Below are positions 8,539 through 64,000 of a stretch of 64,000 nt of DNA, in pieces. This DNA is from Bacteroidales bacterium (GTDB taxonomy: Bacteria; Bacteroidota; Bacteroidia; Bacteroidales; F082). The first letter of the stretch is position 1; the number at the start of each line of letters is the position of its first letter. The notes below the pieces were generated by a model. The model worked only from the letters and a program-made list of their open reading frames with translations, did no database searches and was not told the origin of the DNA. Position numbers and translations under genes: made by a program. The DNA lies in the NCBI GenBank assembly GCA_963676635.1, contig OY781105.1, positions 4,173,138 to 4,237,137 of the forward strand. The letters are read 5' to 3'.

Positions 8539-8552
8539 CGGCAGTTGCCAAT

Positions 8553-26320: not shown

Positions 26321-26510
26321 ACCCAACACTCTTGGATTGTCATCTGATTGACCCGTCCTGAATTTAGTTGACAAATTTATTATTAATTTATTAAATAAAA
26401 CATAACTCTTAATTTTAGAATTGTCACAAAAAAGTTATTCTGAAGCATTTTTGACCTCAAGTCAAAAAAATGATTCGGAAATAACTTTTTCCAATGAACC
26501 ATGTACTGTT

Positions 26511-27410
26511 TTAAACATGACATTGTTGCTCCTTGTTTTTGTAGTAATTCTTCCAAAGCCGTTTAAGGCTTCGATTCTCAACATGTGCCTGATTTGGAGT
26601 TAATAACTCTATGCTACTATGTGGTCTTTCACTATTATAAATCTTTATGATTCGTTTGATTTGAATAATCGCATCATTTAGAGATTTTAGTTTAATTTCA
26701 TATATCCACTCTGTTTTTAGTATTCCGTTAACTCTTTCTGCTACTGCATTTTCTAATGGATCACCATTTTCTGTCATACTTATATTTACATTAGCCTTAT
26801 TTAGGATTTCAACATATTTACTACTACAATACTGCACTCCTCTATCTGAATGATGGATAAGGTTCTTAACTCCTGCAGGTAACTGACTCAAAGCCATACA
26901 TAAAGCTACAACTGCATTGTCAGAACCCAGATTATCTGATAAATTCCATCCTATTATCTTCCTGGAGAAGGCATCTGTTATCAAAAACAGATATACAAAG
27001 CCTTCAGATGTTTCTACGTAGGTTATGTCGCTAACCCATAATTGATGTGGACCATTAGGTATAAATTCCTTTATCAAATTTGGATACTTTCTTAGCCAAT
27101 GACTTGACATTGTCGTGATTGCTTTGTGCCGCTTTCTTCTGACAAGTAAGTTGTTATCCCTTAAAAAATCAAAAAACTTATCCCTACCCATATGAAGATC
27201 ATCTGGTATTTTACCTTGTAACTTGAAATGTAGTTTTCTACCTCCAAGCATAGGCATTAATTTCCTTTCCTTGGCAATCATCTGAATTAAAATCTCAGAC
27301 TCAAATGCAGATCTTGTGCTGATTTTTCTCTTTTTATAGTAGGTCTGTCTTCGTTTACCAAACAGTTCACACAAAGTATCAATACTTTGACCTTCTTTCT
27401 TTGTGTGCAT
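26511..27410 (-). CDS. IS3-family transposase OrfB (DDE integrase core)
   Basis: 299 aa with WVSDITY..., HHSDRGVQYCS and the ...NAVAERVNGILKTEW pattern of rve-domain transposases. Confidence 0.9.
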   Translation of the reverse strand: MHTKKEGQSIDTLCELFGKRRQTYYKKRKISTRSAFESEILIQMIAKERKLMPMLGGRKLHFKLQGKIPDDLHMGRDKFFDFLRDNNLLVRRKRHKAITTMSSHWLRKYPNLIKEFIPNGPHQLWVSDITYVETSEGFVYLFLITDAFSRKIIGWNLSDNLGSDNAVVALCMALSQLPAGVKNLIHHSDRGVQYCSSKYVEILNKANVNISMTENGDPLENAVAERVNGILKTEWIYEIKLKSLNDAIIQIKRIIKIYNSERPHSSIELLTPNQAHVENRSLKRLWKNYYKNKEQQCHV

Positions 27411-27415
27411 ACTCT

Positions 27416-27784
27416 CTACTGTTTGGTGCCAGACTTTTTTCTGATCGAAATTTTAAACTTATCCTCAGCAATATCTATCATCGTATTCAAGGCTTCTGTC
27501 CGTAATCGCTCATAGGAAAGCTTTGATTCTAACTTCTTTATCGTTGATTCTAATTCCAACTCTTGTTTACTTTTACCATTTTCTTTTGACATTAGTATTT
27601 GTTTATGGATTTCTCTATCATCCGGTTTTGAAATGCCAAATTTACGAATCCATTTGTTAAGTGTTCCGCCTGAACCAAAACCATACTTTTGCGATAGCTC
27701 CTTTCTTGTCTGATCTGTTTCCAAATACTCTTTAACGATCTTCAATTTTAATTCGTCCGAAAATTGGTTTACTTTTCTTTTCAT
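27416..27784 (-). CDS. IS3-family transposase OrfA (HTH)
   Basis: 122 aa with an HTH and leucine-zipper-like region. It ends just after the slippery site. Confidence 0.85.
   Translation of the reverse strand: MKRKVNQFSDELKLKIVKEYLETDQTRKELSQKYGFGSGGTLNKWIRKFGISKPDDREIHKQILMSKENGKSKQELELESTIKKLESKLSYERLRTEALNTMIDIAEDKFKISIRKKSGTKQ
27434..27440 (-). promoter_or_regulatory. Programmed -1 ribosomal frameshift heptamer A_AAA_AAG (OrfA to OrfAB)
   Basis: The minus strand reads ATC AGA AAA AAG TCT. The -1 frame is open from here into OrfB (..KVWHQTVESMHTKKEGQ..). Confidence 0.7.
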
Positions 27785-27850
27785 AGTCCTGAAATTTGTT
27801 TACTTTTTGTGTCAACCTATTTCAGGACGAGTCAGATTTCTCCTTGTAAC

Positions 27851-27922
27851 CTTGTCACCTTGTCACCTTGTCACCTTGTCACCTTGTCACCTTGTCACCT
27901 TGTCACCTTGTCACCTTGTCAC
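27851..27922. repeat. Perfect octanucleotide microsatellite (CTTGTCAC) x 9
   Basis: 72 bp counted directly. The paralogous site at 12621-12660 has only degenerate words. Confidence 0.95.
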
Positions 27923-44102: not shown

Positions 44103-44218
44103 CCCACTGAGCGTAGTTTCATCCGCCTTGGCGTAAGACATGTGTACCTACGTTCGCCTATCAAAAAAAAACAATGAGAGCAGTTATTATTCAGAATTAT
44201 ATTTATAGTATTTGTGGA
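44103..44218 (+). repeat. Structured hairpin element, copy 1
   Basis: cccactGAGCGTAGTTtcatccgccttggcgtaagacatgtgtACCTACGTTCgcctatcaaaaaaaaacaatgagagcagttattattcagaat...tatttgtgg. Confidence 0.8.
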
Positions 44219-51364: not shown

Positions 51365-51538
51365 CTGGATTGTGATAGCTGTCAAATGTGTAATGATTAA
51401 TGGATGAACCACACACTGAGCGTAGTTTCATCCGCCTTGGCGGAAGACATGTGCAACTACGTTCGCCTATCAAAAAAACAATAAGAACAGTTACTAGCAG
51501 AATAATTTTTACAATATTTGGGGGTAGTTGCAAACTAC
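51365..51538 (+). repeat. Structured hairpin element, copy 2
   Basis: Outer stem 51418-51427 / 51455-51464 with one G-T wobble, and inner hairpin tccgccttggcgga at 51431-51444. The tail is gcctatcaaaaaaacaataagaacagttac...acaatatttgggg, followed by a second mini-palindrome, gtagttgcaaactac (51524-51538). Confidence 0.8.
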
Positions 51539-51941
51539 ATATATAGGGGGATTAGGTAGCGATAATAAACCCATCATAAATAGCACGAGTCCCCTAACTC
51601 GTATTTTGCAAAGATGTTAGTATTTATAACTGAATTGGTAGTCCCTTCGTTCCCTTAAGTCTCTCCAGTCCTATTTATAGTCCTTGTTATAGCACGAGTG
51701 GGGGGCTTGAGCAATTGTGGGAAATCTAATTGCGTTTGTTCGCTTTCAATATACTTCCTGACTTCCTCAAACATATATTCTTTCTTACTCATTTTTTTTT
51801 CTGACAAGAGTAAATGTTTTTTTTTGTAGTCGGTTGGATACAGTTATTCGGACGAATACGGACAAACATGTTCAATTAATTTGGTTTTCCAGTATAGAGC
51901 ACATTACACAAACTACTACAAGTTACAATTTTGTGTTTAAT

Positions 51942-53174
51942 CTAGAATCTTGAGTGAATTGTATCTAAACTCGTTTGTATGGTATTTGTTTCAGCTTTAG
52001 GGACACCTGATAATTCAGCATACATTTTCCAATTATCGACAATACGCTCGATCTCATCTATTGTATCTTTCGCTTTATTAACAGATAAAACATCTGCTAA
52101 CTCCAGTAACTCTTTCCTTCCCGGATCAACGTAGTTACCAGCGCAAGCTGTACTATGATATCCTTGAGAAGATGAAGAGAATGTCAAGTCATATGCTGGT
52201 GCAAGAGACCACGTTCCTTCAGAATCCATAAGAAACGCAAAGTTTTTAGAATGATCATCACGGTTATGGGCTAAGACGTTAAAAACAGCTCTGCGAAACA
52301 TTTGATGAGCTGCCTGTGCGTTATTTGTTAGCTTCTTTGCTTGATATATTAGATTACCATAATCAAGGGTGCTATGCTCATAGTCATCGTGAAGTAGCCC
52401 TGCAACTGAGAGCATATGCAACTTGTTATTCCCAACACGATCAAATCGCTTGGTTCCAAAATATTTATTCCCAGTTTCACTTTTAAACACCCTACACTCG
52501 GACATTTCAATCCCTGAATCTAAGGCCATTTTATAAAAGGCTAGTTCAATATTAGCTATGTCTTTCAAATCTACATCTGTTGCAAATTTAATAATCCAAT
52601 GTTCATATCCTTCCGGAAGATTAGTGATGCCACTAATGAGTGAATCAGTTTTCGAATTATATCCGGCATAAATTTTTGGACGAGCTCCACCAGGACTTCC
52701 ACCTCTTCCAAACATCTGATCAATTACGACACTACTCTCTCCTTTAATTATTTTAGAAATATTGTTATTTAGTACATCCAGATTAATTTCTATTGCCTCC
52801 TGCTCTAATTCAACACCCGGTTTGTACTGTAGAGCTCCCATACTATTCTTCCCCGCAAGTGTTAAATGATCCAGGGCATTTAGAGATTCAATAGCAATTC
52901 GGTTGGCACTTAGCTGTTTTCTGATTAGTAAATATCCCCAAGCATCCGGTAAAGAGTCAGCAAACACGCCAAAAAGGCCATTGAATGGGTTTTTATTAGC
53001 CGTTTGTGGGTTATCATCAAACATTAACATATTAGGTGATAGATTTGTCCCTGATTTTAAATAATCATCACTATATTTAAAAAGGATATCCCGACCATCA
53101 AGAATTAACTGGCCAACAAGTTTATCTTCAGAAAAATGTATATACACATTGAGTTTAGTTGTCGCCATAATCAA
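51942..53174 (-). CDS. hipA: Type II toxin HipA-family serine/threonine kinase
   Basis: 410 aa with GGSPGGARPK and the NRDDHSKNFAF catalytic-loop motif. It overlaps the upstream HTH gene by 4 bp. Confidence 0.85.
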   Translation of the reverse strand: MIMATTKLNVYIHFSEDKLVGQLILDGRDILFKYSDDYLKSGTNLSPNMLMFDDNPQTANKNPFNGLFGVFADSLPDAWGYLLIRKQLSANRIAIESLNALDHLTLAGKNSMGALQYKPGVELEQEAIEINLDVLNNNISKIIKGESSVVIDQMFGRGGSPGGARPKIYAGYNSKTDSLISGITNLPEGYEHWIIKFATDVDLKDIANIELAFYKMALDSGIEMSECRVFKSETGNKYFGTKRFDRVGNNKLHMLSVAGLLHDDYEHSTLDYGNLIYQAKKLTNNAQAAHQMFRRAVFNVLAHNRDDHSKNFAFLMDSEGTWSLAPAYDLTFSSSSQGYHSTACAGNYVDPGRKELLELADVLSVNKAKDTIDEIERIVDNWKMYAELSGVPKAETNTIQTSLDTIHSRF

Positions 53175-53446
53175 TAATTAAATAAATCTTTTTTCCGTTT
53201 CAGATCATCAATAAGTAAAATAGATTCGAAATCATTCAAGCGATTAAGAGCTTCGCTTATTTTTAAAAGTGATTCAAGAGAAATAATACCTGTTGATTCA
53301 AATTTACGAACAGTAGCGTAAGCTACTCCAGATCTCTCCGACAATTCCCTCTGAGACATCTTCTTCTGTTTCCTTAAGGCAATGATTTTTTTTGATAAAA
53401 GAATCATTATTTCTTTAGGTGAATTTTGATCTCCGTACATTCCCAT
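53171..53446 (-). CDS. hipB: XRE-family HTH antitoxin (HipB-like)
   Basis: 91 aa with LRKQKKMSQRELSERSGVAYATVRKFE (HTH_XRE), translationally coupled to hipA. Confidence 0.75.
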   Translation of the reverse strand: MGMYGDQNSPKEIMILLSKKIIALRKQKKMSQRELSERSGVAYATVRKFESTGIISLESLLKISEALNRLNDFESILLIDDLKRKKDLFNY

Positions 53447-53496
53447 GTCTGCATTTATTTTTACAACACAAAGATAGAAAATTTACTACCCTAAAT

Positions 53497-53551
53497 GCTA
53501 CTATAGTGGCAAAATATTCTATAATAAATGGAAATATGTTACTATAATAGC
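53497..53551 (-). promoter_or_regulatory. Two GYTACTATARTRGC imperfect palindromes upstream of hipB (candidate operators), plus a TATCTTTG -7 box at 53469-53476
   Basis: gctactatagtggc (53497-53510) and gttactataatagc (53538-53551), 41 bp apart. The minus-strand TATCTTTG lies ~20 nt before the ATG. Confidence 0.35.
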
Positions 53552-53773
53552 AATTTTGAGGAGGTATCCTAATTATTAATAGGAGAATGTCTAAACAAAT
53601 CCAACAGGAAAGACAAAGATGTCTCCTTGATCCAATCTGATACATATTCAAGCCGAAAAGAGGTTGATTTATGATAATTACATTATCACTTCTTCGACAA
53701 TTTTCATACTGTTTTCTAGATAAATTCAACTTTAAAATTCACTACACCTAGTGGGGAGACCTCCTCCATCTGG

Positions 53774-54019
53774 GTGTAGATTGATTGCAATAGATTGAAT
53801 GTAAGGTACGAGAGCTAAAATGAGATAAACCCACTGAGCGTAGTTTCATCCGCCTAGGCGGCGGACAGGTGCAACTGCGCTCGCCTATCAAAAAAACAAT
53901 TAGAACAGTTATTATGCAGAATTGTGTTTACGATATTTGGGGGAATTTCAAATTAGACCCGGAGGGGGGATAGTCATTCAATAAAACAATCAACCCCCTT
54001 AATAAGTGCATTGAAAACT
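53774..54019 (+). repeat. Structured hairpin element, copy 3 (full length)
   Basis: Left arm gtgtagattgattgcaatagattgaatgtaaggtacgagagctaaaatgagataaaccc. Hairpin 53836-53882 with one T-G wobble. Tail ...cattcaataaaacaatcaacccccttaataagtgcattgaaaac. The right end coincides with the hsdM truncation point. Confidence 0.8.
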
Positions 54020-54589
54020 GTGATGTAGCTCAACATGGACTCCTGCTTTTTTTTCCGAACCTGAGGCAAACTGACCAATCAAATATTCATACGTATCTCC
54101 AAGGGTATCGGTGTCAGTGGAAAAATCAGCAATTCCTTCGGCAATTTTTTGAATGATGGTGCAAAGCTTTTTGTTTCGGTCGGTTGGTGTTTTTCCAAGT
54201 TTCTCAGAGTTTAAGTTAATTTCTGAAAACAAACCATGAAAGGAATTATCAAAGGATTCGGTTTCGATGTATTTATAACTCTCCACCAAAGTTTCCAGCA
54301 ATTCGCAGTCCTGGGTACTGGCAAGCTCGGCGATGTTGTTCCACAAGAATTCCGGTTTGATTACATAATGTACCTTTCGGCGCATTTGTTTCTCAAATTC
54401 AACAACATCATCCGGTTAATCTCCACCTAATTCCTTCTTGGCCGATTCCTCATAATTGGCAGATAAACACCTTAAAAAAAGAAACGAAAGCATATAATCA
54501 CGGAAACCATCAGCATTCATTGCCCCACGAAGCTGGTCTGCTATTGCCCAAAGGGTTTTACTTAATTTATGTTGTTCTATTTGTGTCAT
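53999..54589 (-). pseudogene. hsdM: Type I restriction-modification methylase subunit HsdM, N-terminal fragment (frameshifted and 3'-truncated)
   Basis: MTQIEQHKLSKTLWAIADQLRGAMNADGFRDYMLSFLFL... (start 54589), a frameshift near 54390-54420, then ...LGDTYEYLIGQFASGSEKKAG followed by unrelated sequence from ~54040. No AdoMet-binding or catalytic NPPF region, and no hsdS or hsdR. Confidence 0.8.
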
Positions 54590-54611
54590 ACTGTATTCTT
54601 TTTTGTCTGAA

Positions 54612-55031
54612 TCAGGATTTTCCTGATTTAAGGATTTCCTGATTACTTTGTTTGGTGTATTTGGGGTTGTATATTTTTTTAAACTGTAAACTTTTGCCAC
54701 CAAAATTGATTAGCAAGCCAATAGGCTTATCGTAGGCCACAACATAGTTTTTAGCTTGCGTCAGGTGCACATCTTCTAAGTTGATGAGTGCTTTTAGTTC
54801 GACAATTACCAAATCTTCCACCACAAAATCAGCGCGTCTTGTGCCTACTTCAATATCTTCATAGTAAATGGCATGTTCTTGTTCTCTGGCAAAAGAAATA
54901 CCTGCATGCTCCAATTCAATAGCCAAACATCTCTGGTAAATGACTTCCTGAAATCCATTGCCCAGAGTATTATGCACTTTCATTGCACAACCATTTATTT
55001 TGTATGTCAGTTCATCTAAGGTCATAAACAA
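54612..55031 (-). CDS. GxxExxY family protein (PD-(D/E)xK-like), copy 1
   Basis: 139 aa with the family-typical pattern LTYKINGCAMKVHNTLGNGFQEVIYQRCLAIEL...ADFVVEDLVIVELKA. Confidence 0.8.
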   Translation of the reverse strand: MFMTLDELTYKINGCAMKVHNTLGNGFQEVIYQRCLAIELEHAGISFAREQEHAIYYEDIEVGTRRADFVVEDLVIVELKALINLEDVHLTQAKNYVVAYDKPIGLLINFGGKSLQFKKIYNPKYTKQSNQEILKSGKS

Positions 55032-55142
55032 TTATTTTTTTCCATCCTGTTAATATAAAATCTTGTACATCTTACTATCCTGTACACTATTATTTTTTCA
55101 AATCCTGTTCATCCTGTCATCCTGTATTCTTTTTTGTCTGAA

Positions 55143-55562
55143 TCAGGATTTTCCTGATTTAAGGATTTCCTGATTACTTTGTTTGGTGTATTTGGGGTTG
55201 TATATTTTTTTAAACTGTAAACTTTTGCCACCAAAATTGATTAGCAAGCCAATAGGCTTATCGTAGGCCACAACATAGTTTTTAGCTTGCGTCAGGTGCA
55301 CATCTTCTAAGTTGATGAGTGCTTTTAGTTCGACAATTACCAAATCTTCCACCACAAAATCAGCGCGTCTTGTGCCTACTTCAATATCTTCATAGTAAAT
55401 GGCATGTTCTTGTTCTCTGGCAAAAGAAATACCTGCATGCTCCAATTCAATAGCCAAACATCTCTGGTAAATGACTTCCTGAAATCCATTGCCCAGGGTA
55501 TTATGTACTTTCATTGCACAACCATTTATTTTGTATGTCAGTTCATCTAAGGTCATAAACAA
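55143..55562 (-). CDS. GxxExxY family protein, copy 2 (identical protein)
   Basis: The translation is identical to copy 1. Confidence 0.8.
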   Translation of the reverse strand: MFMTLDELTYKINGCAMKVHNTLGNGFQEVIYQRCLAIELEHAGISFAREQEHAIYYEDIEVGTRRADFVVEDLVIVELKALINLEDVHLTQAKNYVVAYDKPIGLLINFGGKSLQFKKIYNPKYTKQSNQEILKSGKS

Positions 55563-55687
55563 TTATTTTTTTCCATCCTGTTAATATAAAATCTTGTACA
55601 TCTTACTATCCTGTACACTATTATTTTTTCAAATCCTGTTCATCTTGTCATCCTGTAAATCCTGATTCAGACAATTTTTTCATTAAC

Positions 55688-55840
55688 CCCCACTGAGCGT
55701 AGTTTCATCCGCCGTGGAGGCGGATACGTGCAACTACGCTCGCCTATCAGAATAGTTATTATGCAGAATTTTATTTACAGTATTTGGATGTAGTTTCATT
55801 CAATAAAACAAGCAAATCCCTTAATAAGTGCATAGAATAC
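55688..55840 (+). repeat. Structured hairpin element, copy 4 (left arm missing, A-run shortened)
   Basis: Perfect outer stem 55695-55704 / 55732-55741 and inner hairpin tccgcc-gtgga-ggcgga at 55708-55724. The tail ...tttcattcaataaaacaagcaaatcccttaataagtgcatagaatac matches copy 3. Confidence 0.8.
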
Positions 55841-55896
55841 GGGGACGCTGGGTTTTGCAAACCGCTCAGATTACTATTTATTGTGCACTGGCTTTT

Positions 55897-56382
55897 TTAC
55901 CAATTCAACTTTCCTTTCTTCCAAAATATGAATGCCATAATATTCATTAACACACATAATCCAATGATTACGAAACCAAGCTGTTTTTGAAATCCGTTTC
56001 TAACAAAGTATGCTTGTTCTTCCTTGTCTATAAATTGTATATACCTATTTAGTCCACTATTTTTAGTGTCTGATGTTTCGTAATAGTATACATCAATTTT
56101 GTCACCAACATTTAAGTCGTCTATCCTTTTATCTGTTGGTTCACTATTTGGTTCATAGATTTCAAAAAGATAAGGATAAGTGTCTACTTTTAAATATCTA
56201 TAATCACCTTTATTTCGAATTGGAAAATTTTGAAATTTCTTTTCTAAATACTCAATTGTTCCGGTTGATTTGTCATATTCTGATTTCTCTTTGGAATTAT
56301 TTACAATCACAAATATTCCAAGTCCAAGTACTATAATTGAAGTAAAAATTACTCCACGAACACTTATTATTATTGGTATCAT
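55897..56382 (-). CDS. Hypothetical membrane protein (two predicted TM helices flanking a soluble domain; DUF3592-like topology)
   Basis: 161 aa with an N-terminal TM (VIFTSIIVLGLGIFVIV) and a C-terminal TM (LGFVIIGLCVLMNIMAFIFW). No catalytic motif was recognised. Confidence 0.5.
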   Translation of the reverse strand: MIPIIISVRGVIFTSIIVLGLGIFVIVNNSKEKSEYDKSTGTIEYLEKKFQNFPIRNKGDYRYLKVDTYPYLFEIYEPNSEPTDKRIDDLNVGDKIDVYYYETSDTKNSGLNRYIQFIDKEEQAYFVRNGFQKQLGFVIIGLCVLMNIMAFIFWKKGKLNW

Positions 56383-56490
56383 ATTTCTCTTTTTCTAGCT
56401 TTTGCACAACGGTTTGGCAATTCGTAGTGCGGGATTTATAGGTGCTTTACTTTTTTTTTACTACAAAATTTATATACTTTGATAATCTCT

Positions 56491-57534
56491 CTATTTATCA
56501 ATATCACCTGCATTACGTAAAGCTATTGTTAGCATTTGTTTTAATTCTTTTGATGTTGGAACTTTTCCTTTGAGTTTCTCTGGTATTCTATGTGTCAATT
56601 TATATTCTGATACTCCAATTGGTTTATTACTGGTTCTCAAAGCGTATTCGACTTCAAGGTTATCTTTTACAGGACACAAGATTATTCCGATTGAGGGATT
56701 GTCATCAACTTGCTTTTCCTGTTCGTCAAGAAGTTCGAGGTAGAAATTCATTTTGCCGGCAAATTCAGGTTCAAATTCAACCGTTTTTAATTCAATGGCA
56801 ATTAAGCATTTCAATATACGGTGATAGAATAACAAATCAATAAAATACTCCTTTTGATTAAGCTTTAATCTATATTGATTTCCAATAAGACTAAATCCGT
56901 AACCGAGTTCTAAAAGCAGGTCTCTTATATTTTCAATAAGTTTATTTTCTAATTCTTTTTCTAAAACAGGTTTTGTAATTCCGAGAGAATCAAGATTGTA
57001 TTCACTCTTTAGGGCTTCGTTAGCTTGTTATGAAAGATGTACAGGAAGAGCTTTATCAAAATTGCTTGTTTTTTCGTTTGTCAACTGATGTTGATAAGCA
57101 ATTGCTTTAATCTGATTAAGTAACACTGCTCTACTCCAGCCTAATTGGTCGGTTGCTTGTAAATAATACTTCCGTTCTTTATTGTCTTTCAGTTGTTGAA
57201 TAATAAGCATATTCTGTCCCCATGGAATTTTCATTGCCCTCTCTAAAAGTTCAGGCTCATTTTTATATTCCAGATAAAACTGTCTCATTCTCCATAAATT
57301 CTGAGGTGAATATCCTTTAGCTCCATCCATTTGTTTATTTATGTCTTTCGACAAAGTGTTAACAATAGATTGTCACCACTTATTCTTATCCTGATTTTCT
57401 ACGATTATTCTGCCAATTTCAAAATTATGTCCTATATGATACTTATTCAAAGACTTGAAAGCTTGGTATCTTGCTGAGTTAATCGTGTCGATTATTTCAC
57501 TAAAAAAATTGTTGTATGCTGATAATTTATTCAT
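56491..57534 (-). pseudogene. DUF1016 / YhcG-like PD-(D/E)xK nuclease gene, disrupted by a stop and frameshifts
   Basis: There are three in-order fragments. They are MNKLSAYNNFFSEIIDTINSARYQAFKSLNKYHIGHNFEIGRIIVENQDKNKW* (57534 downward), the 57354-57028 fragment (..PQNLWRMRQFYLEY..GWSRAVLLNQI..) and the 56835-56491 fragment (..LIAIELKTVEFEPEFAGKMNFYLELLDE..). Confidence 0.75.
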
Positions 57535-57609: not shown

Positions 57610-57649
57610 TGGGATCTAGCCTTTTTAAATAAATGCTAATGGTCACTTG

Positions 57650-57830
57650 TAAGTTGTCGTTGCGGATTTCGGAGCTCGTTCCTGTCCGGCAGTACGGAAC
57701 GATGTTGCGAGAATCCAGTGTACGACACACCACTGACCCCGTAATGCAATTTACAATTTTTTAGCGTTTCGTGCTTTATTTTTTCAGTCAATGCGGTGGG
57801 TAAAGCAGGCTCTTATACAGGTTTTGGTTG
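57650..57830 (+). ncRNA. Candidate IS110 bridge (guide) RNA in the 5' non-coding end
   Basis: A locally GC-rich patch in AT-rich surroundings has nested pairings: gtcgt...acgac, ggatt...aatcc and cgttcc-tgtccggcagta-ggaacg. Further downstream are ggtggg...cccacc and ggatt-aa-aatcc. The position matches where IS110-group elements encode their bridge RNA. Confidence 0.3.
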
Positions 57831-58034
57831 AGTGTTGGCTTGTGCGACCTGTAAATGTGCCTGATTGTGCTTAGGATTAAAATCCCGGATATTTTTCCCA
57901 CCACTCATCATTTGTATTGAAAGAGTCTCCTTTAAACTTAACATATAGGCCGTATGTTTGTAAAATAATAAGCTTCTACACATTTTAGTTAATTTTATAG
58001 TGACAAACAATTAATAACTAAAATATAGAAGCTT

Positions 58035-59111
58035 ATGAATGCCAAAGTTAACAAAATTAGTTTTGCCGGAACAAACATTTATATTGGAATAGATGTTCAT
58101 TTAAAGAGTTGGAAAGTAACAATTATGGTTGATAATATTACTTATAAATCATTTTCAATGGATCCTGATGTTCAGATATTAGTTAAACATCTTGAACAAA
58201 ACTTTCCTGAAGGTAATTATTTCTCAGCATACGAGGCAGGGTTTAGCGGATTCCATTTACATAGGGAACTAATTCTCTGTGGTATAAACAATATAGTAGT
58301 AAACCCAGCAGATATTCCAACAACTGATAAAGAAAACAGACAAAAGGAAGATAAACGAGACAGTAGAAAGATAGCTCGCTCATTACGAAATGGAGAACTC
58401 ATAGGTATCTATATTCCTGATCGTGAAATCGAAGAGTTGCGAGGATTGGTCAGATATAGAAAACGATTAGTTGAGGACATATCCAGACAAAAAATTAGAA
58501 TAAAATCTTTTTTACGTTATCATGGTATTAAGATACCCAACGAGCATAGGTCAGGATCACAGCACTGGTCGGCTAGATTTACAAATTGGTTGAATAACAT
58601 AGAAATGAGTACTGCTTATGGTTCTGAAGTTATTTCATATTCTGTTAAAACTGTAAGTTTTTTACGCAAACAGTTATTGGATGTAAACAAGTTGTTGAAA
58701 GAGGTAGCACAACAAGAACCCTATGCAAATCAGATGTCTCTTCTGCGAAGTATACCAGGAGTAGGTCTTGTAGTTGCATTTACACTTTTAACAGAAATTG
58801 TAGATATAAACAGGTTTAAAAATCTTGATAGATTATGTTCTTTTGTGGGATTAATTCCAACAACAAACTCAAGTGGAGAAAGAGAAAAAACTGGCAACAT
58901 AACATACAGAAGCAACCAATCATTACGAGGAGTTTTGTTTGAAAGCGCATGGATAGCAATTAGGTATGATCCTGTATTGGCAAGTACATACCATAAGTTG
59001 TGTAAGAGAATGAACGGTAACAAAGCCATAGTAAAAATAACAAAGAAACTGCTTAGTAGAATACGATTCGTTTTAAAGAATCAACAAGAATATAAAGTGC
59101 TTATGAATTAA
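58035..59111 (+). CDS. IS110-family transposase (DEDD RuvC-like N-terminal domain plus Transposase_20 C-terminal domain)
   Basis: 358 aa with YIGIDVHLKSW..., ...SAYEAGFSGF..., and LRSIPGVGLVVAFTLLTEI..F.....LCSFVGLIPT..SSGE, typical of the IS110 family. Confidence 0.9.
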   Translation: MNAKVNKISFAGTNIYIGIDVHLKSWKVTIMVDNITYKSFSMDPDVQILVKHLEQNFPEGNYFSAYEAGFSGFHLHRELILCGINNIVVNPADIPTTDKENRQKEDKRDSRKIARSLRNGELIGIYIPDREIEELRGLVRYRKRLVEDISRQKIRIKSFLRYHGIKIPNEHRSGSQHWSARFTNWLNNIEMSTAYGSEVISYSVKTVSFLRKQLLDVNKLLKEVAQQEPYANQMSLLRSIPGVGLVVAFTLLTEIVDINRFKNLDRLCSFVGLIPTTNSSGEREKTGNITYRSNQSLRGVLFESAWIAIRYDPVLASTYHKLCKRMNGNKAIVKITKKLLSRIRFVLKNQQEYKVLMN

Positions 59112-59288
59112 TAAAAATCATCAATAATGACTTATCAGTTAAAAGACAGTTACCCAAACCTTGCGATATCAATTGATATTCGTTTCCTTTAGGCTGCTGC
59201 TTTTATCAATAAATCTCTAAACAAGGCAATGCGGTGCTATTTATCAAGAAAGTATCCGTTTATAGAAGTGTGTTTTTATTGATGTTGG

Positions 59289-60383
59289 TTACTGATAAAA
59301 AAGAAAATTATGTGAAAAAAATGTGTGAAAGTTTGGAATACAACATAGAAGGTCTTGGGCTATTTGATTTACAATTTCATTGGCTTTGAGATTTCTTATC
59401 CATTGTTCTGGAATTTTGTCAATACCGTTAATCAGTCCAAGGATATTGCCAGTTATTGAACCTGTGCTATCACTGTCTCCGCTGTGATTCACTGAAAAAC
59501 GGATTCCATTTTTAAAATCTCTTTCAAAAATCAGACTTGCGTACAATGAAATTGACAAAGCTTCTTCTGCAATCCATCCTTGACCTAATTCTTCAATTGT
59601 TTCGGCACTTATTTTATCGCTTTGTGATTTAGTTTTTTCGAATAAAATAATTGCCGCGTTTACTGCATTTTTAGTTTCTGAATTATTGTCCCAATTTTCG
59701 AGAATTTGGATTGCATTGTCAATTGATTTACGGAGTTCAATGCCAATTGCTAAATCAGAAATTATTGAAGCAAAGAAACCTGCACTTAAATATCCCGTTG
59801 GATGTCCATGCGTAATTGCGGAAAGTTCACAGGCAACTTTAAAAGCATTTTCATTTTCTCCCTCGAACATTAATCCGACCGGAGCAATTCTCATAATAGT
59901 TCCACAACCTTTGCTATCGTTTATTGGATTTTCAATTGTTCCGGCAATGCCACTACTCAAAGCAGAAATACAGGTATTCCCAGGAGCACGTCTGTTATAC
60001 AATACTTTCTCTTTTATAAGCCATCCTTTCTCCACGTCGTATTTTCCATCCTTAATGTTGTCAATGTTTACACCAATATTTTGAGTATGCAACCAACGTA
60101 AATAAGAATGATGGGCAATTGCATTCAGTGCACCTCCAATTCCTTTCAGCATTGCCCGATGATAAGCACGTAGCAGGGCTTCCGCGGTAAATAGTGTCAT
60201 TTGGGTGTCATCTGTAAATTCTCCGGTATTGTTCTCAAATTCTACAAAGTCTAATATTCCATTTTTTCCAAATTTTGCTTTTATTTGAGATAGACTGAGA
60301 AATTCAATTGGTGCGCCTAAAGCATCTCCAACAGCACCACCAATTAAACAACCGATGTAGTGCGAAAAATCTATTTTTTCCAT
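59289..60383 (-). CDS. ADP-ribosylglycohydrolase family protein
   Basis: 364 aa with the binuclear-metal ARH fold motifs GGAVGDALGAPIEF, ...TDDTQMTLF... and ...GDSDSTGSITGNILG. The last ~20 aa look atypical, so the 3' end is possibly remodelled next to the IS110. Confidence 0.8.
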   Translation of the reverse strand: MEKIDFSHYIGCLIGGAVGDALGAPIEFLSLSQIKAKFGKNGILDFVEFENNTGEFTDDTQMTLFTAEALLRAYHRAMLKGIGGALNAIAHHSYLRWLHTQNIGVNIDNIKDGKYDVEKGWLIKEKVLYNRRAPGNTCISALSSGIAGTIENPINDSKGCGTIMRIAPVGLMFEGENENAFKVACELSAITHGHPTGYLSAGFFASIISDLAIGIELRKSIDNAIQILENWDNNSETKNAVNAAIILFEKTKSQSDKISAETIEELGQGWIAEEALSISLYASLIFERDFKNGIRFSVNHSGDSDSTGSITGNILGLINGIDKIPEQWIRNLKANEIVNQIAQDLLCCIPNFHTFFSHNFLFYQ

Positions 60384-60433
60384 GCCTATTGTTTTAATTC
60401 AATTAATTCATCTTTTCGTTCAAGGATTGCGGC

Positions 60434-60616
60434 TTATGTTATTGAAACAATCTCCTCTATTTCAGGCCAGAATTTATTTATTGCATGATAAATTTCGTTA
60501 TCATCTTTTTCATTCATTTCTTCCAAGTCAAACTTCCATTTTCGGTGAAAATGAACTAACCATTTATTACCAGATGGTGTTTTGCTTTTTGGAAGCGAAA
60601 TCAAGCTTTTATTCAA
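60434..60616 (-). CDS. Small hypothetical ORF upstream of the ARH gene (no ATG start; possibly 5'-truncated)
   Basis: 60-aa frame starting at TTG. The frame stays open upstream to a stop at 60692-60694 without any ATG. It lies 50 bp upstream of the ARH start on the same strand. Confidence 0.25.
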   Translation of the reverse strand: MNKSLISLPKSKTPSGNKWLVHFHRKWKFDLEEMNEKDDNEIYHAINKFWPEIEEIVSIT

Positions 60617-60729
60617 TATTTGTTTTACAATATTATCATTCTCTGTCTGACTACCTTCTGCAATTACAGTCTTAAAATTAATAAATTTTGTCTAATCTTA
60701 GACTGTCTTATTTTTTGGGGATACTACAG

Positions 60730-60890
60730 GTGTAGATTGATTGCGAAAGATTGAATGTAAGGTACGAGAGCTAAAATGAGATAAACCCACTGAGCGTAGT
60801 TTGCAACTACGCTCGCCTATCAAAAAAACAATAATAACAGTTACTATGCAGAACTATATTTACAATATCTGGGTATAGTTGCAATCTGCA
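60730..60890 (+). repeat. Structured hairpin element, copy 5 (lacks the inner palindrome)
   Basis: The left arm is nearly identical to copy 3. A perfect 22-nt palindrome, gagcgtagttgcaactacgctc, lies at 60793-60814. The tail is gcctatcaaaaaaacaataataacagttactatgcagaac...tagttgcaatctgca. Confidence 0.8.
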
Positions 60891-60967
60891 CTCACTTCTG
60901 TTTCACTTCATCCACAGCTCCGCCCCCTCAGTCACACGCAACTTGTACAACATCCTGCTACACAACC

Positions 60968-61090
60968 CTATACCAAAACTAAAAAAAGCAATAAATTACC
61001 TCAATTACTACTCAAAATATGTGTAATAGTATCTTAGCAAGTCCAGTTTTTTTAGTTTCAATAATTAACAAGCCTCAAATATATAAAAAA
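60968..61090. repeat. Right copy of the ~120-bp inverted repeat pair (partner at 6117-6235)
   Basis: The reverse complement reads tttgaggcttgttaattattgaaactaaaaaaactggacttgctaagatact...gttttggtat. Confidence 0.6.
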
Positions 61091-61100
61091 AATTTATATG

Positions 61101-61313
61101 AATGGTGAATGGAGGGACAAGGGAACCGCCTGAGGCGGTCAGGCAGGGACAAAGGGACAAGGTGACAAAGAGACAAGGTGACAAAGGGAACCGCCTGAGG
61201 CGGTCAGGCAGTGACAAGGTGAAAAATATGCGCAGCTCACCATCCGCCGGTGGGCGGACACGGCTCACTATTCATCCGACTGAGTCGGACACGGCCACCA
61301 TTCACCACTCACC
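61101..61313. repeat. Modular repeat block D (GTGACAAGG-type words plus four small palindromes)
   Basis: ccgcc-tga-ggcgg twice (61126, 61191), tccgcc-ggtg-ggcgga (61243-61258) and tccgac-tga-gtcgga (61275-61289). It is inverted relative to block E. Confidence 0.75.
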
Positions 61314-61427
61314 ACACAACATGGCAGGGGAGAGGGATGGAGTTTGTGTTGGTGGTGACTTGATTTATATTCGTCAGAGGTGTTAAACCAAAAATGCTGT
61401 ACTTAATACGTCAAAGATGCAATCTGA

Positions 61428-61575
61428 GATGCTATGCATTCGTGACCCCCTTAATAGTAAACAAGATGTGAGTCAAATGCTATGCATTCGCAAGCTCCTA
61501 AAATAATAGACAAGATGTGAGTCAAATGCTGTGCATTCGCGAACTCCTAAATAATAGACAAGATGTGAGTCAATC
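61428..61575 (+). repeat. 48-49-bp tandem repeat, about 3 copies
   Basis: The unit gatgtgagtcaaatgct(a/g)tgcattcgc.a.ctcctaaa(a)taatagacaa starts at 61465, 61514 and 61562, with a diverged leading unit from ~61428. Confidence 0.8.
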
Positions 61576-61589
61576 CAATTTACAGCAAA

Positions 61590-61880
61590 TTTATCTATGC
61601 TTTCAGGCATGATAAATTGATACTCAATGCGTCAGTGATACATTTTGAAATGCTTTTCAGTCACAATTTCAAAAAAATATAAAGTTTGTAATTCAAGTCG
61701 ATTTATAGACATGAAATCTATGCTTTCAGGCATAGATAAGTTGTATACTTAATACGTCAAAGGTACCATCTAAGATGCTGTAATTGTGCACAAATATTAT
61801 TGTGAGTCCAACGCTATGCATAGTCAAATAATCTCTGCTTTCAGGCATAGCTAAACTTTTTTTTCAATACGTCAAAGAAC
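61590..61880 (+). repeat. Degenerate ~120-bp units, each with a ctatgc-tttcag-gcatag hairpin followed by an AATRCGTCA box
   Basis: Hairpins lie at 61595-61611, 61716-61737 (8-bp stem) and 61833-61850. Boxes lie at 61401-61416, 61622-61637, 61746-61763 and 61865-61877. Confidence 0.65.
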
Positions 61881-62370
61881 AATTTTAAATCCTTTGGATT
61901 TGCGAACTTCTCCCGCTACTACAGCCTCCATTCTAATACAAATCCATACAAACAAGACTTAAAGTACGATTTAATCATCCAGGAGCGTTAAGTGTGCTCG
62001 TCTATGCCACAGGACTCATAATCCCTCAGGTAGCAAGGCATAGTAAATAAACAGCGAATTCTCTTTCTTAAGCATCTTGTAATCTCTTTTCTAATGTTCA
62101 ATGGATTAATGACCAATCCCTCAGGATCTTCTGCGGGAGACAAGGGCATAATCAATGCATGCCCACTCTCAGACAAGGAACTTACAGCAGATTTCAAGAT
62201 GTTTGTTAAAGTTTTAGCAACTAATGAGCCGGCAGTAAATATTGTGATTAACAAAAAAAGTACTGGTTGCATAATTGCGTATTGTTCGTTTGTCATAATA
62301 GGTTAATGCTTAGATTATGACGTAAAGATACGTAATTTTTTGATTGATTATACATAATATTAAGGGAATG

Positions 62371-62400
62371 TCTGCTATTGTCTGCTATTGTCTGTTATTG
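62371..62400 (+). repeat. 10-bp tandem repeat (tctgctattg x 3, third copy with 1 substitution)
   Basis: Read directly; the period equals one helical turn. Confidence 0.85.
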
Positions 62401-62723
62401 TCCACCATATTCTAAATTATTCTGATAAAGCAAGTATTAATGTAGGGTTATACCTTTTTGCTCAAATAATACGCTAAACAAGGAGATTTTTGGGAAATAA
62501 TTTGGAAATGCGACTTCCTTTCTGACGATAAAAGAGAAGAAATACCTATTATTGAAATTAATTATGCGAAAACCCGAAAATAAACTGGGCGAGCGGGTTT
62601 TTAGTAATATTAAAAGAATCCACTGAATTACTGTATGCACAATATCAAACACATACGGGCTTTATTCCATTATAAACACACTCAAAAAACGCCATAATTA
62701 CTCTAAAAACCAGCCTAGTTCAA

Positions 62724-63152
62724 ACTACACTAAAACTACACTAAAACTACACTAACTACACTAAATCGGATTGAAGCTGTGATATATGTCACATTCAATG
62801 TTGAGGAAGCGCATTTTTTTTCAAAAAAGTGTTTATAATTACATAATGCAGTAAAAAACACTGAAAATTTGATTGTTATATTATCCTATGAATATGTATA
62901 TCAGATATATACAAGGTGTATTTTATATTTTTATAAACAATATCAGCTAAAAATTCATAAAAATTTAGTGTAGTTTGGTCTAATTTAGTGTAGTTTTAGT
63001 GTAGTTTGAAAAGGCCAAACTACACTGGGTTTGTCGCTGATAAACAAATCATTACAAAGTTTAGTGTAGTTAGTGTAGTTTTTTTTCTAAAAGTATTTTT
63101 GAAAAAAGTAAATATATAAATAACATAGTGCAACCTACACTAACTACACTAA
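62724..63152. repeat. Iteron-like array: 12 copies of (A)CTACACTAA in opposed clusters around a ~200-bp AT-rich spacer
   Basis: Direct copies lie at 62724, 62735, 62746 and 62755. Inverted copies lie at 62965, 62985 and 62996, with a partial direct copy at 63019. Two more inverted copies lie at 63061 and 63070, and two more direct copies at 63135 and 63144. Confidence 0.85.
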
Positions 63153-63249
63153 ACTATTTTTGGATTGTTAAAATAATGATTTATGTTAAAGTTAATGTTC
63201 AAAGTTTAAATTTGGGAATTAAGGAAAACCAGGTATTTTTCATTTTTTT

Positions 63250-63452
63250 GGTGAATAGTGAACTGTGTCCGCCTACCGGCGGATGGTGAGTGGTGAATGG
63301 TGAATAGTGAATAGTGAGCTGTGTCCGCCTACCGGCGGATGGTAAGCAGAGCGCTTTTCTCACTTTGTCCCTTCGTTCCCTTCAGTCCCTAGAGTCTCTT
63401 CAGTCATTTTTCATTATTCATTTTTCATTATTCTTTTCTTACCCCTTGTCCC
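63250..63452. repeat. Modular repeat block E (GGTGAAT words, two tccgcc-tacc-ggcgga palindromes, TTCATTA words, CCTTGTCC)
   Basis: Palindromes at 63268-63283 and 63324-63339. Module order parallels block B (25782-25954) and the reverse complement of block D. Confidence 0.75.
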
Positions 63453-63858
63453 TAATCACAAGCTCATGGAGCAATCATTGGAAGCGCTTTGGTTAGTCGT
63501 TTTATGCTCATCCGTACCCCAATTCATGAGCACGCACGACTTGTCCGATGAGCTTGTATTTTTAGTCGATAAGCTTGTTTTTTGAGAAATTGTATTTTCT
63601 TAAAAAAATATCATCATCATAAAAGGAAATTGTAAAAACAGTACCATTACTTTGGAACTTTTTCGTATATTTACAGCTTAAAATCCAGGAAGATTAACCA
63701 TAAACTCACTAAGTTTTTGTTAAGTCCGGACAAGCTTTTTAGTAGCAGAAAACAGATTCTGATAGCAGCATAACTCTTAGGTATGCTACTTTTTAGTACT
63801 TATGCTAAAGGCAGTCCGATTATTCCGGAAGCTAAAATATTGACTATAATTATTACAA

Positions 63859-64000
63859 ATGAATGAATACAGGTGGTCTGCATTGGCAGACCGGATCATA
63901 AACAGGTTACATAAGCACATTTTTGTGGCATATGCTGTGTTATGTTTTCCGGGGATAGCTTATAAGTGTTTCCTGGTGCAGAGACTATATTCAGCTTCTA
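63859..64000 (+). CDS. Possible 5' end of a CDS running off the window
   Basis: An ATG at 63859 is followed by 47 open codons (MNEYRWSALADRIINRLHKHIFVAYAVLCFPGIAYKCFLVQRLYSAS) to the window edge. No function is assignable. Confidence 0.25.
   Translation, partial: MNEYRWSALADRIINRLHKHIFVAYAVLCFPGIAYKCFLVQRLYSAS

Follow-up and report, generated by a model that had tools for sequence, protein, structure and literature searches.

A gene-poor segment of a Bacteroidales chromosome as a candidate copy of a composite repeat element with an origin-like iteron module

Introduction

What is a stretch of about 3 kb, crowded with repeats and almost free of credible genes, doing in the chromosome of a Bacteroidales/Marinilabiliales-like bacterium? 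It lies at the right-hand end of the window, by which we mean the whole 64,000-nucleotide stretch that was analysed. The original prediction described a 1.9-kb repeat core between two inverted blocks, D and E. It proposed the replication or partition region of a plasmid-like element, an invertible or transposable non-autonomous element, or a cluster of non-coding RNA genes. Our preferred answer, to which we assign a probability of roughly 0.45, is that the DNA from 60684 to beyond 64000 is a copy of a composite repeat element carrying an origin-like, protein-binding module derived from a mobile element.

Very little is known about the origins and other cis-acting sites that Bacteroidota phages and integrated elements use. 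The module is built on a 9-bp box found unchanged in three settings, which provides a testable handle on the protein recognising it and shows how origin-like modules may turn into dispersed chromosomal repeats. For annotation, what looks like a gene desert would become a repeat family specific to one species and containing two real small genes. Repeats of this kind can break assemblies, and here a candidate defence gene is inactivated.

Results

The segment begins inside a candidate defence gene

The left edge of the anomalous segment locates at approximately 60684, where homology to 95%-identical relatives ends inside a gene assigned to PDDEXK_4 / PDC-S26 by running Pfam and PADLOC on the intact gene of a relative. 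In blastn searches and alignments, the relatives (L076-78 at 95% identity, L074-75 at 85%) share only the blocks 57634-57933 and 59365-60681 with this region, and the sharp end of the L074-L078 alignment at 60681 falls within the PDDEXK_4 gene, which is intact in the relatives. The left flank (60374-60688, minus strand) is a truncated pseudogene of this PDDEXK_4 / PADLOC PDC-S26 candidate defence gene, as defined by blastn, tblastn and the alignment to L074-L078. It retains residues 295-401 of 401 and carries two in-frame stops. The first 294 codons are replaced by the segment, and the missing 5' part is absent from the entire 64-kb window by tblastn. The original prediction was to be refuted by a decayed pseudogene tract or by intact genes in related strains; we see such a gene at the left edge only, and find no support for pseudogene decay.

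On the right side, a 73-aa ORF starting at 63859 (ORF73) runs off the window, and the segment therefore extends past 64000. With its start near 60684 and ORF73 crossing the window end, the segment is larger than the interval 60890-63858 first drawn. The left break at 60684 has no partner within the window, and because the right end of the element lies outside it, insertion, deletion and rearrangement are indistinguishable.

The surroundings resemble a defence island or mobile-element hotspot, with IS110, HipA and hsdM fragments. Low coding density, which had been taken to single out this spot, is shared by the stretch at 51-58 kb, likewise a tract of gene fragments. Immediately inside the breakpoint, self-blast and alignments resolve 60690-61089 into a patchwork of short dispersed repeats: 60690-60728 recurs at 8552-8590; 60729-60890 at 53773-53941, 51452-51539, 44148-44214 and 55729-55801; and 60970-61089 at 6114-6235.

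Blocks D and E belong to a dispersed, modular repeat filler

The repeats listed in the original prediction (blocks D and E, a 48-bp array, ~120-bp units, a 10-bp repeat and the boxes) are all present. Block D (61101-61313, minus strand), delimited by repeat search and three-way alignment, is inverted relative to E and consists of GGTGAAT-type heptamers, GC hairpins (CCGCCTGAGGCGG twice and CCGCCGGTGGGCGG) and CCTTGTC-type octamers. Block E (63250-63452, plus strand), delimited by repeat search, self-blast and alignment, shares homology with D in reverse complement and with a third composite copy at 25775-25952; it contains heptamers, two GTCCGCCTACCGGCGGATGG hairpins and octamer/heptamer tracts. 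Three arms of D and E match in inverted orientation: 65 nt (83% identity), 39 nt (92%) and 19 nt (100%). The two blocks are thus inverted homologues as predicted, but they are not unique boundaries of the 1.9-kb core: the third copy brackets nothing, and partial arrays of the same modules lie at 12.6, 27.8 and 51.1 kb. Aligning the three composite copies revealed modules gained or lost between them. An ORF read across block D has a paralogue, P0140, with the same right-hand junction of D in the same orientation.

Four degenerate units of ~120 bp, each with a motif TACTTAATACGTCAAAG and a hairpin TATGCTTTCAGGCATA, occupy 61400-61880 on the plus strand (repeat search and folding). Their spacings are 123, 115 and 125 bp, with TATGCTTTCAGGCATA hairpins at 61596, 61719 and 61834, and the 48-bp tandem array (61429-61573; 3.0 copies, 87%) expands unit 1. 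The 10-bp tandem repeat TGTCTGCTAT (62369-62402, plus strand, 3.4 copies) lies 73-106 bp upstream of the start codon of a 102-aa ORF, ORF102. Sigma-70-like hexamers on the minus strand overlap this repeat in a number not above that of shuffled sequence; counts in the sigma-70 and terminator scans equal those of shuffled sequence, and such a scan is uninformative for Bacteroidota anyway.

Two small orphan genes exist in nine variants each

ORF102 (61988-62296, minus strand) had been called weak. Protein searches instead revealed an exact match to a recorded protein of one 4.26-Mb genome and eight paralogues that keep the frame at 66-100% identity, and the 9 distinct variants all lie on a single 4,261,035-bp record. 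This small orphan protein has an N-terminal hydrophobic helix and a conserved Cys-rich C-terminus; its AlphaFold model is poor (pLDDT 57.7), and no fold search was based on it. ORF73 (63859-64000, plus strand) is the 5' part of a 73-aa orphan protein whose end is predicted from its length at ~64080. It likewise has 9 distinct variants, all on the same record. The two ORFs are divergent, and the iteron module lies between them.

Neither protein has a homologue outside the source genome among 5.8 billion proteins, or a match in Pfam, PHROGs, NCBIfam or PADLOC. A profile search with ORF102 against 1.84 billion representatives returned a spurious YVTN-propeller as the sole match, and the conserved 3' part of ORF102 has no exact DNA match in viral contigs. 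A further ORF of 71 aa (62437-62652, minus strand) matches nothing in Pfam or NCBIfam, and Pfam recognises none of the 48 open segments (35 aa or longer) in the six frames.

Since ORF102 and ORF73 each occur in nine distinct variants in one genome, the element is multi-copy. We infer from these variants that the segment is one copy of a repeat element of at least 3 kb, with at least nine copies (a lower bound from protein variants, not a DNA-copy count) and confined to one species. The repeated unit probably extends beyond block E, because the number of ORF73 variants equals that of ORF102. D and E were therefore ruled out as termini of the unit, as ORF73, its presumed part, lies outside E. 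D and E are the inverted repeats that we see, and the right end of the element is beyond the window. In this respect the proposal of a transposable or invertible non-autonomous element holds for the copy number and for the clean breakpoint in a gene intact in relatives, and fails for D and E as ends. The copy number also fits a MITE, but a MITE is small (<~1 kb) and non-coding, whereas the segment spans at least 3 kb with two frame-conserved small ORFs.

Opposed box sets flank an easily melted spacer

The 9-bp box CTACACTAA is found in 11 exact copies within 62725-63152 (~430 bp) versus 1 in the remaining 63.5 kb. Twelve boxes had been counted; the twelfth is a degenerate one at 63018. Iteron set 1 (62722-62765, plus strand) comprises four AAACTACACTAAA boxes at 62725-62764 with spacings of 11, 11 and 9 bp, and iteron set 2 (62964-63007, minus strand) comprises three boxes at 62965-63004 in the opposite orientation. 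Between them locates an AT-rich spacer (62766-62963, GC 24%) with a CRP-type palindrome TGTGAtatatgTCACA at 62778-62793. In a nearest-neighbour stability scan, 62867-62966 is the second least stable 100-bp interval of the 64 kb. Together, the two sets form a ~295-bp palindrome (62716-63010) with arms of 48 nt at 85% identity.

A second, smaller iteron unit (63012-63166) contains the degenerate box and two abutting box pairs, one on the minus strand (63061, 63070) and one on the plus strand (63135, 63144), separated by a 53-bp spacer of 17% GC. We notice Bacteroidetes-type -7 motifs, TAnnTTTG, after the box pairs at 63094 and 63155, and one more at 63207. Within the module, the boxes are phased at 11 bp, one helical turn, with A-tracts between them and the sets opposed.

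Within the window, the module has no neighbouring gene for a primase, helicase, Rep, Par or recombinase, as judged by Pfam on ORFs and six-frame segments, and VapE and Prim-Pol tblastn queries gave no match there. Searching the literature for the box sequence turned up only primers. A chromosomal oriC was considered and rejected: the segment has a single DnaA box with one mismatch (60908), the count over the whole window is that expected by chance, and the cumulative GC-skew profile, a check suggested at the outset, has no turning point at the segment.

The same box recurs near primase-helicase genes and in palindromic elements

Outside this chromosome, AAACTACACTAAA arrays are present in the phage contigs L002, L043 and L071, 204 bp upstream of a Prim-Pol gene. 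In L071 a P4-family primase C-terminal helicase comes next after this gene; in L002 the array has a ParB-like gene on its other side, at a distance of two genes. Further arrays, in integrated elements that include those of rumen Bacteroidales, are found 102-862 bp upstream of BT4734_N-VapE or VapE genes (L054/L051, L023, L069, L024 and L027), in every case 5' of the gene. Among 92 ORFs counted next to box loci, the only recurrent families with more than three members were DUF5906 (6), VapE (5) and BT4734_N (4), and Prim-Pol matched 2. A replication gene adjoins only ~10% of the box loci; most are MITE-like palindromes or stand among housekeeping genes. A VapE profile scan of viral contigs gave just two distant matches. 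The Prim-Pol and BT4734_N-VapE proteins beside the box share no mutual BLAST similarity, and because the adjoining primase-helicases are so diverse, the box binder may be some other protein.

Rumen Bacteroidales carry palindromic elements of ~315 bp (L005-L041) with the identical box, three copies per arm at 11-bp pitch, converging on an AT-rich core of 150-200 bp; two MAGs have seven box-array loci each. The overall size of these elements matches the palindromic unit of the window. Their linkers, on the other hand, are TC/AC versus AA in the window, they have ~60 bp of extra terminal inverted repeat outside the boxes, and their cores are unrelated and bear their own hairpins. Beyond the boxes they have no similarity to the window. 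L046 and L044 have three boxes 32 bp upstream of a polysaccharide deacetylase gene within a sugar-gene cluster. The box is thus identical in a 31%-GC phage, in ~50%-GC rumen Prevotellaceae elements and in this 36%-GC anaerobe. Contigs L001, L003, L004, L007, L018, L026, L031, L035 and L038 were set aside as one-directional simple tandem repeats of unrelated taxa; the set-aside contigs come from giant viruses, archaea, Gluconobacter, Paenibacillus and similar sources.

Discussion

On the basis of the anatomy, the breakpoint, the multi-copy status, the box recurrence and the association of the box with primase-helicase genes, we propose that the element has three layers. The first would be a REP/BIME-like filler of GC hairpins and 7-8-bp tandem tracts, including D and E, scattered in many intergenic regions. 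The second would be the pair of divergent orphan genes, ORF102 and ORF73, and the third the iteron module, with opposed CTACACTAA sets around a very AT-rich, easily melted spacer. We speculate that a box-binding protein encoded outside the window loads cooperatively on one helix face of both arms. The bound protein would bend the DNA and open or occupy the AT-rich spacer. The origins of phage satellites and P4-type replicons are described as operating in this manner. The module may thus be an origin-type or initiator-operator-type site from a mobile element, here separated from its initiator, and it may be present in every genomic copy. The origin or operator reading is drawn from the position of the exact box, a short distance 5' of primase-helicase genes in a phage and several integrated elements of Bacteroidota. 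Against an origin-type site stand the few box loci with replication genes beside them and the diversity of the candidate binders; a chromosome with at least nine functional origins would also be odd.

It is possible, though we think it unlikely, that the element is instead a promoter-bearing, MITE-like regulatory repeat similar to BrickBuilt, in which the arrays serve as phased A-tract, curved-DNA or operator sites and have no replication role. Transcription outward into ORF73, ORF102 and the neighbours would then be driven or regulated by the arrays. The element is indeed species-restricted, multi-copy, intergenic and minisatellite-bearing like BrickBuilt (PMC4596501). Each of the two abutting box pairs is immediately followed by a TAnnTTTG motif facing ORF73, boxes precede the deacetylase gene in L046 and L044, and the majority of box loci are ~315-bp MITE-like palindromes among unrelated genes. 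However, a regulatory repeat leaves unexplained both the enrichment of primase-helicase genes beside the arrays and the opposed sets around an AT spacer. No correctly spaced -33/-7 pair was found, and the element, with its two ORFs, is far larger than a MITE.

Invertible promoters are common in Bacteroidales, and a phase-variable segment, in which site-specific recombination between D and E flips the 1.9-kb core, deserves consideration. A flip would move the rightward promoters off ORF73 and re-orient ORF102, and a global invertase would act on all of the at least nine loci. The inverted homology of D and E, with its perfect 19-nt and 92% 39-nt matches, agrees with such a switch, as do the putative promoters at the right edge of the core, which face E and ORF73, and the resemblance of the multi-copy family to multi-locus invertons. 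We nevertheless regard inversion as improbable. Bracketing inverted repeats are present, but no serine or tyrosine invertase lies nearby within the window, where the recombinases are IS110 (DEDD) and IS3 (rve) transposases only; a distant global invertase is conceivable. Moreover, the sequence shared by D and E is a generic module that brackets nothing at 25.8 kb and elsewhere, the single paralogue with a visible junction (P0140) keeps the same orientation, and a 1.9-kb core is large for an inverton.

We hold a chromosomal orphan origin to be similarly doubtful. Here the CTACACTAA palindromes would be an undescribed, Bacteroidota-wide iteron family, common to phages, primase-helicase integrated elements and MITE-like derivatives, and the element would have the binding sites without an initiator. 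It could be fired in trans by box-using phages or integrated elements, leading to in-situ amplification in the manner of a satellite. Alternatively, it could act as an iteron decoy that titrates incoming phages or elements and so confers incompatibility or defence. The location in a defence island would fit the decoy.

Somewhat less probable still is the idea that a single integrated plasmid, ICE or prophage left its replication or partition region here as a remnant, with its genes beyond the window end. The module layout is origin-like or parC-like, and the segment is foreign compared with close relatives and sits in a defence and mobile-element hotspot. Yet one genome holds nine variants each of both flanking small ORFs, blastn against 72,556 plasmids and 50,697 phages found nothing, and the orphan ORF73 is neither Rep nor Par. 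Of the plasmid-like element originally predicted, what survives is the PICI/SaPI-like layout (PMC6092414) and the box near primase-helicase genes elsewhere; the multi-copy status and the lack of a rep, par or primase gene in the window speak against it.

Clustered non-coding RNA genes, or decayed pseudogenes, are very improbable. The long non-coding stretch and its hairpin-bearing units speak for them. Against them, Rfam gave nothing at gathering thresholds and, at E<=1, only a spurious plant miRNA model (E 0.24); ARAGORN found no tRNA or tmRNA, and therefore no tRNA-type attachment site; the repeated units and the 48-bp array at 61.4-61.9 kb fold ordinarily (z-scores +1.4 to -1.6); the six-frame segments lack Pfam matches; and ORF102 has no homologue beyond its source genome.

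Comparison with known systems

Returning to the composite element with an origin-like module, its parts can be compared with different systems. REP/BIME of Escherichia coli and BOX of Streptococcus pneumoniae are mosaic intergenic repeats. The filler parts, though neither the iteron module nor the ORFs, share their modularity: D, E, the 25.8-kb copy and a 170-bp family join GC-rich hairpins to short units in variable number, are intergenic, stand in either orientation and gain or lose modules, and D and E are dispersed in this manner (12.6, 25.8, 27.8 and 51.1 kb). The sequences are unrelated, however, and the modules here include 7-8-bp microsatellite tracts.

BrickBuilt, a MITE/minisatellite of Porphyromonas gingivalis, is species-restricted, with 19 copies that are always intergenic and have promoter activity (PMC4596501). 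It consists of a few hundred bp to ~1 kb of one tandem 23-nt repeat with leader and tail, has small terminal inverted repeats and contains no ORFs (PMC4596501). Our element belongs to the same phylum and is likewise species-restricted, multi-copy and built of tandem repeats. In contrast, it spans at least 3 kb and combines several repeat families, unrelated to one another, with two small conserved ORFs; it lacks defined termini and has no sequence similarity to BrickBuilt.

In parC of plasmid R1, a type II partition site, two repeat clusters of ~11-bp periodicity flank a promoter-containing core and are bound cooperatively on one face. The module resembles parC in its two clusters, their ~11-bp periodicity and their position on either side of a core. 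Unlike in R1, no parM/parR or parA/parB operon adjoins, and the box sets are opposed rather than direct; the only ParB-like gene seen is that of the phage contig, two genes from the array.

The closest layout is that of PICI, SaPI and P4 origins. The origin boxes of P4 are short, at 8-9 bp, and stand in either orientation, and ori and crr are bound by the alpha primase-helicase. PICI/SaPI-type origins have two iteron sets flanking an AT-rich melting site (PMC6092414), and the window likewise has two short-iteron sets around an AT-rich, easily melted spacer. The likeness rests on sequence layout: no initiator or pri-rep gene lies beside this copy up to 64000, the element is multi-copy in the chromosome, and the same box accompanies unrelated initiator proteins. 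A PICI origin follows pri-rep, whereas the related box arrays lie upstream of the primase-helicase gene. As in P4-type replicons, the box at other loci adjoins genes for Prim-Pol, P4-family primase C-terminal or VapE helicases.

A multi-copy element with two small ORFs

The minus-strand frame at 61988-62296 (ORF102) had been regarded as a weak ORF in the original prediction. Instead, it exactly matches a protein on a 4,261,035-bp NCBI/ENA record, and its frame is kept in paralogues. The same record carries eight more distinct variants of ORF102, 94-104 aa long and 66-100% identical. Outside that record, no homologue was found among 5.8 billion proteins, and profile searching against 1.84 billion representatives produced a spurious match only. 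Because the frame stays intact across ~34% amino-acid divergence and the variants form a mosaic pattern, we read ORF102 as a real gene. Its small product would carry a hydrophobic helix at the N-terminus and four cysteines in a conserved C-terminal part. The AlphaFold model of this protein was too poor in quality for use.

A second small ORF, ORF73, starts at 63859 on the plus strand and runs off the window. It has nine distinct variants, each of 73 aa, and all of them locate on the record that holds the ORF102 variants. Based on the equal variant numbers and on the adjacency of the two ORFs in the window, we infer that ORF102 always occurs together with ORF73. A frame crossing block D (61102-61386) has a paralogue at no less than 90% identity, in which D and the core are joined as here but one GC hairpin is missing. 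The ORF variants and the D paralogue show that the stretch from at least 61.1 to ~64.08 kb is one copy of a repeat family confined to the species, with at least nine members, a size that rests on counting distinct protein variants, not DNA copies.

Left edge and genomic context

The window comes from the chromosome of a Bacteroidota organism and encodes PorP/SprF as well as T9SS cargo with Por_Secre_tail or CHU_C domains. For its ADP-ribosylglycohydrolase, the closest named relatives are from Bacteroidales and Marinilabiliales, and the protein P0092 is a 61%-identical homologue of this enzyme. We also notice a large tandem duplication at 12705-39154, comprising a pair of PorP/SprF genes and a pair of giant ORFs (3874 and 3359 aa), the larger of which, the only one subjected to a domain scan, is a PKD-repeat T9SS cargo protein. 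Between the duplicates is an IS3 element (26511-27784), flanked by a 101-bp tandem repeat (25955-26321, 3.6 copies) and by (CCTTGTCA)x10 at 27842-27922.

The tract at 51-61 kb consists of accessory and broken genes, including HipA with its HTH partner, two hsdM N-terminal fragments, a split YhcG/DUF1016 and the ADP-ribosylglycohydrolase. Broken genes resembling a defence island (HipA/HTH, hsdM, YhcG/DUF1016 and a truncated PDDEXK_4) span 51942-57354 and 60374-60688. A tandem pair of PDDEXK_3 genes (GxxExxY-type, 139 aa; 54612-55031 and 55143-55562), with identical amino-acid sequences, adjoins the hsdM fragments.

The left flank was compared with metagenomic contigs of close relatives, L076-78 (95% identical) and L074-75 (85% identical), which align to the window solely at 57634-57933 and 59365-60681. 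The gap therefore identifies an IS110-family element (~57934-59364, transposase at 58035-59111) as an insertion in the 3' end of the glycohydrolase gene; the relatives are contiguous across the insertion point, and the final ~5% of the gene is unlike its homologues. Homology to the relatives then ends abruptly at ~60683-60688, within a PDDEXK_4 gene of 401 codons, which they carry intact. An intact protein from these relatives matches the PADLOC candidate defence family PDC-S26 (E 3.6e-115). The remnant in the window covers residues 295-401 (60374-60688, minus strand) with two in-frame stops, and the missing 5' part was not found anywhere in the 64 kb. Since the homology breaks off at this point, the anomalous DNA starts ~200 bp to the left of position 60890, where its start had originally been placed. 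Relative to these close relatives, the anomalous segment is foreign or rearranged.

Repeat architecture of the segment

Blocks D (61101-61313) and E (63250-63452) proved by repeat finder and alignment to be inverted homologues, as predicted, with arms of 65 nt (83% identity), 39 nt (92%) and 19 nt (100%). Between them, TRF recovered the expected 48-bp tandem array (61429-61573, 3.0 copies) and 10-bp tandem repeat (62369-62402, 3.4 copies), and the ~120-bp hairpin-bearing units were confirmed at spacings of 123, 115 and 125 bp. Each of these units carries the motif ATACGTCAAAG and the hairpin TATGCTTTCAGGCATA, neither of which occurs elsewhere in the window. The cluster of 9-bp boxes, CTACACTAA, is real, but 11 exact copies instead of the 12 counted previously lie in 62725-63152, versus one in the other 63.5 kb of the window.

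Heptamers of the GGTGAAT type, GC hairpins and octamers of the CCTTGTC type make up both D and E in a mosaic. The same composite structure is found a third time at 25775-25952, and octamer arrays or hairpins of the same kind are also found at 12.6, 27.8 and 51.1 kb. We considered D and E as the limits of the repeated unit and rejected this, because ORF73, by inference a member of the unit, sits beyond E.

Left of D lies a 400-bp patchwork of short repeats recurring in other intergenic regions. The repeats at 60690-60728 and 60970-61089 have second copies at 8552-8590 and 6114-6235, respectively. A dispersed intergenic repeat of ~170 bp occupies 60729-60890, with further copies at 53773-53941, 51452-51539, 44148-44214 and 55729-55801. 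It is built around the stem GAGCGTAGTT...AACTACGCTC, and all but one of the five copies have an extra GC hairpin inserted in the loop. On the minus strand, the copy at 60740-60889 folds with z = -2.5, and Rfam gave no match for this repeat. The intergenic DNA of the host genome is evidently filled with REP/BIME- or BOX-like modules.

An iteron module with opposed boxes

The extended form of the box is AAACTACACTAAA. Iteron set 1 comprises four boxes at spacings of 11, 11 and 9 bp, and the three boxes of set 2 point the opposite way. The two sets make up a ~295-bp palindrome whose centre is a 198-bp spacer (24% GC), which holds the second least stable 100-bp stretch of the 64 kb. In a second, smaller unit next to it, a 53-bp spacer (17% GC) separates one pair of abutting boxes from another pair in the opposite orientation. 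The 11-bp pitch with A-tracts between the boxes predicts that the DNA is intrinsically curved and that binding is cooperative along one face of the helix. We notice a perfect palindrome of CRP/FNR type, TGTGAtatatgTCACA (62778-62793), in the AT-rich spacer that separates the two sets; it occurs once in 64 kb versus 0.09 expected by chance.

The same box in a phage, primase-helicase loci and palindromes

Relatives of the box were found by exact-pattern scans of public collections. In the phage contigs L002, L043 and L071 (31-33% GC), opposed box arrays surround an AT-rich core 204 bp upstream of a Prim-Pol gene. This gene is followed in L071 by a P4-family primase C-terminal helicase, and the opposite side in L002 is occupied by genes for a ParB-like protein, terminase and portal. 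In rumen Bacteroidales contigs, BT4734_N-VapE or VapE primase-helicase genes are preceded at 102-862 bp by box arrays, often with additional internal tandem repeats; the array is 5' of the gene in every case, and four distinct gene lineages are represented.

MITE-like palindromes of ~315 bp (L005-L041, from rumen Bacteroidales/Prevotellaceae MAGs) lie among unrelated genes. They have the ends GCACCC...GGGTGC and three boxes per arm at an 11-bp pitch, and two rumen MAGs yielded seven box-array loci each, mostly complete palindromes of this kind. Some copies (L009, L028) have nested insertions, and the cores occur in both orientations. Among 92 ORFs flanking box arrays, the recurrent families with more than three members were DUF5906 (6), VapE-like (5) and BT4734_N (4), and Prim-Pol had two matches. 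Similarity between the window and all other box loci is limited to the boxes themselves.

Several loci are more elaborate. In the marine metagenome contig L045 (2615-2799), 11 same-strand boxes alternate with a second motif, CTACAGTTTAA. In L047, L063 and L064, from the rumen, the box arrays are accompanied by two more families of internal iterons, one of them a 22-bp unit, GTGCAAGTATGCTGTTTCCTTG, with ~7 copies in L047 and L064. Such an organization suggests complex regions that resemble origins and contain several repeat types. In L046 (Ga0315274_10000374), a polysaccharide deacetylase gene in a glycosyltransferase cluster has three boxes 32 bp upstream of it.

Possible function and comparison with known systems

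The ori and crr of P4 contain 8-bp boxes that are bound by the alpha primase-helicase. Because of this box use, a PICI-like layout and the 11-bp pitch with A-tracts, we tentatively read the module, with a probability of roughly 0.45, as a mobile-element-derived site of the origin or initiator-operator type, which would lie without its initiator inside a composite repeat. Against this reading, tblastn with VapE/Prim-Pol and six-frame Pfam searches found no rep gene in the window, a replication gene adjoins only ~1/10 of the box loci, and nine functional origins per chromosome would be odd. The adjacent initiators are also mutually unrelated, and the binder may therefore be another, more conserved protein.

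Directly after each of the two abutting box pairs stands a TAnnTTTG -7 motif pointing towards ORF73, which favors a promoter-bearing regulatory repeat resembling BrickBuilt (PMC4596501), an explanation that we consider rather doubtful overall. That D and E bracket an invertible switch is improbable, as the window contains no invertase gene. Slightly less probable again is the edge of a single integrated replicon, against which the nine ORF variants in one genome speak. The remaining readings are unsupported: a cluster of ncRNA genes (no Rfam family and no tRNA in the region, ordinary folding energies in the repeated units), a decayed-pseudogene tract (no Pfam domain in any of the 48 open segments, 35 aa or longer, from six-frame translation) and a chromosomal oriC (no signal in the DnaA-box count or the GC-skew profile).

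The part most worth pursuing is the Bacteroidota-wide box family and its association with primase-helicase genes. PICI origins have two short-iteron sets around an AT-rich melting site and adjoin pri-rep genes (PMC6092414). The putative origin- or operator-type module in the window similarly has two opposed short-iteron sets flanking an AT-rich spacer, but differs from satellite and P4-type origins in having no adjacent initiator gene. The whole element resembles BrickBuilt in being a species-specific repeat, although it is larger, composite and ORF-bearing, and its filler parts resemble REP/BIME or BOX mosaics.
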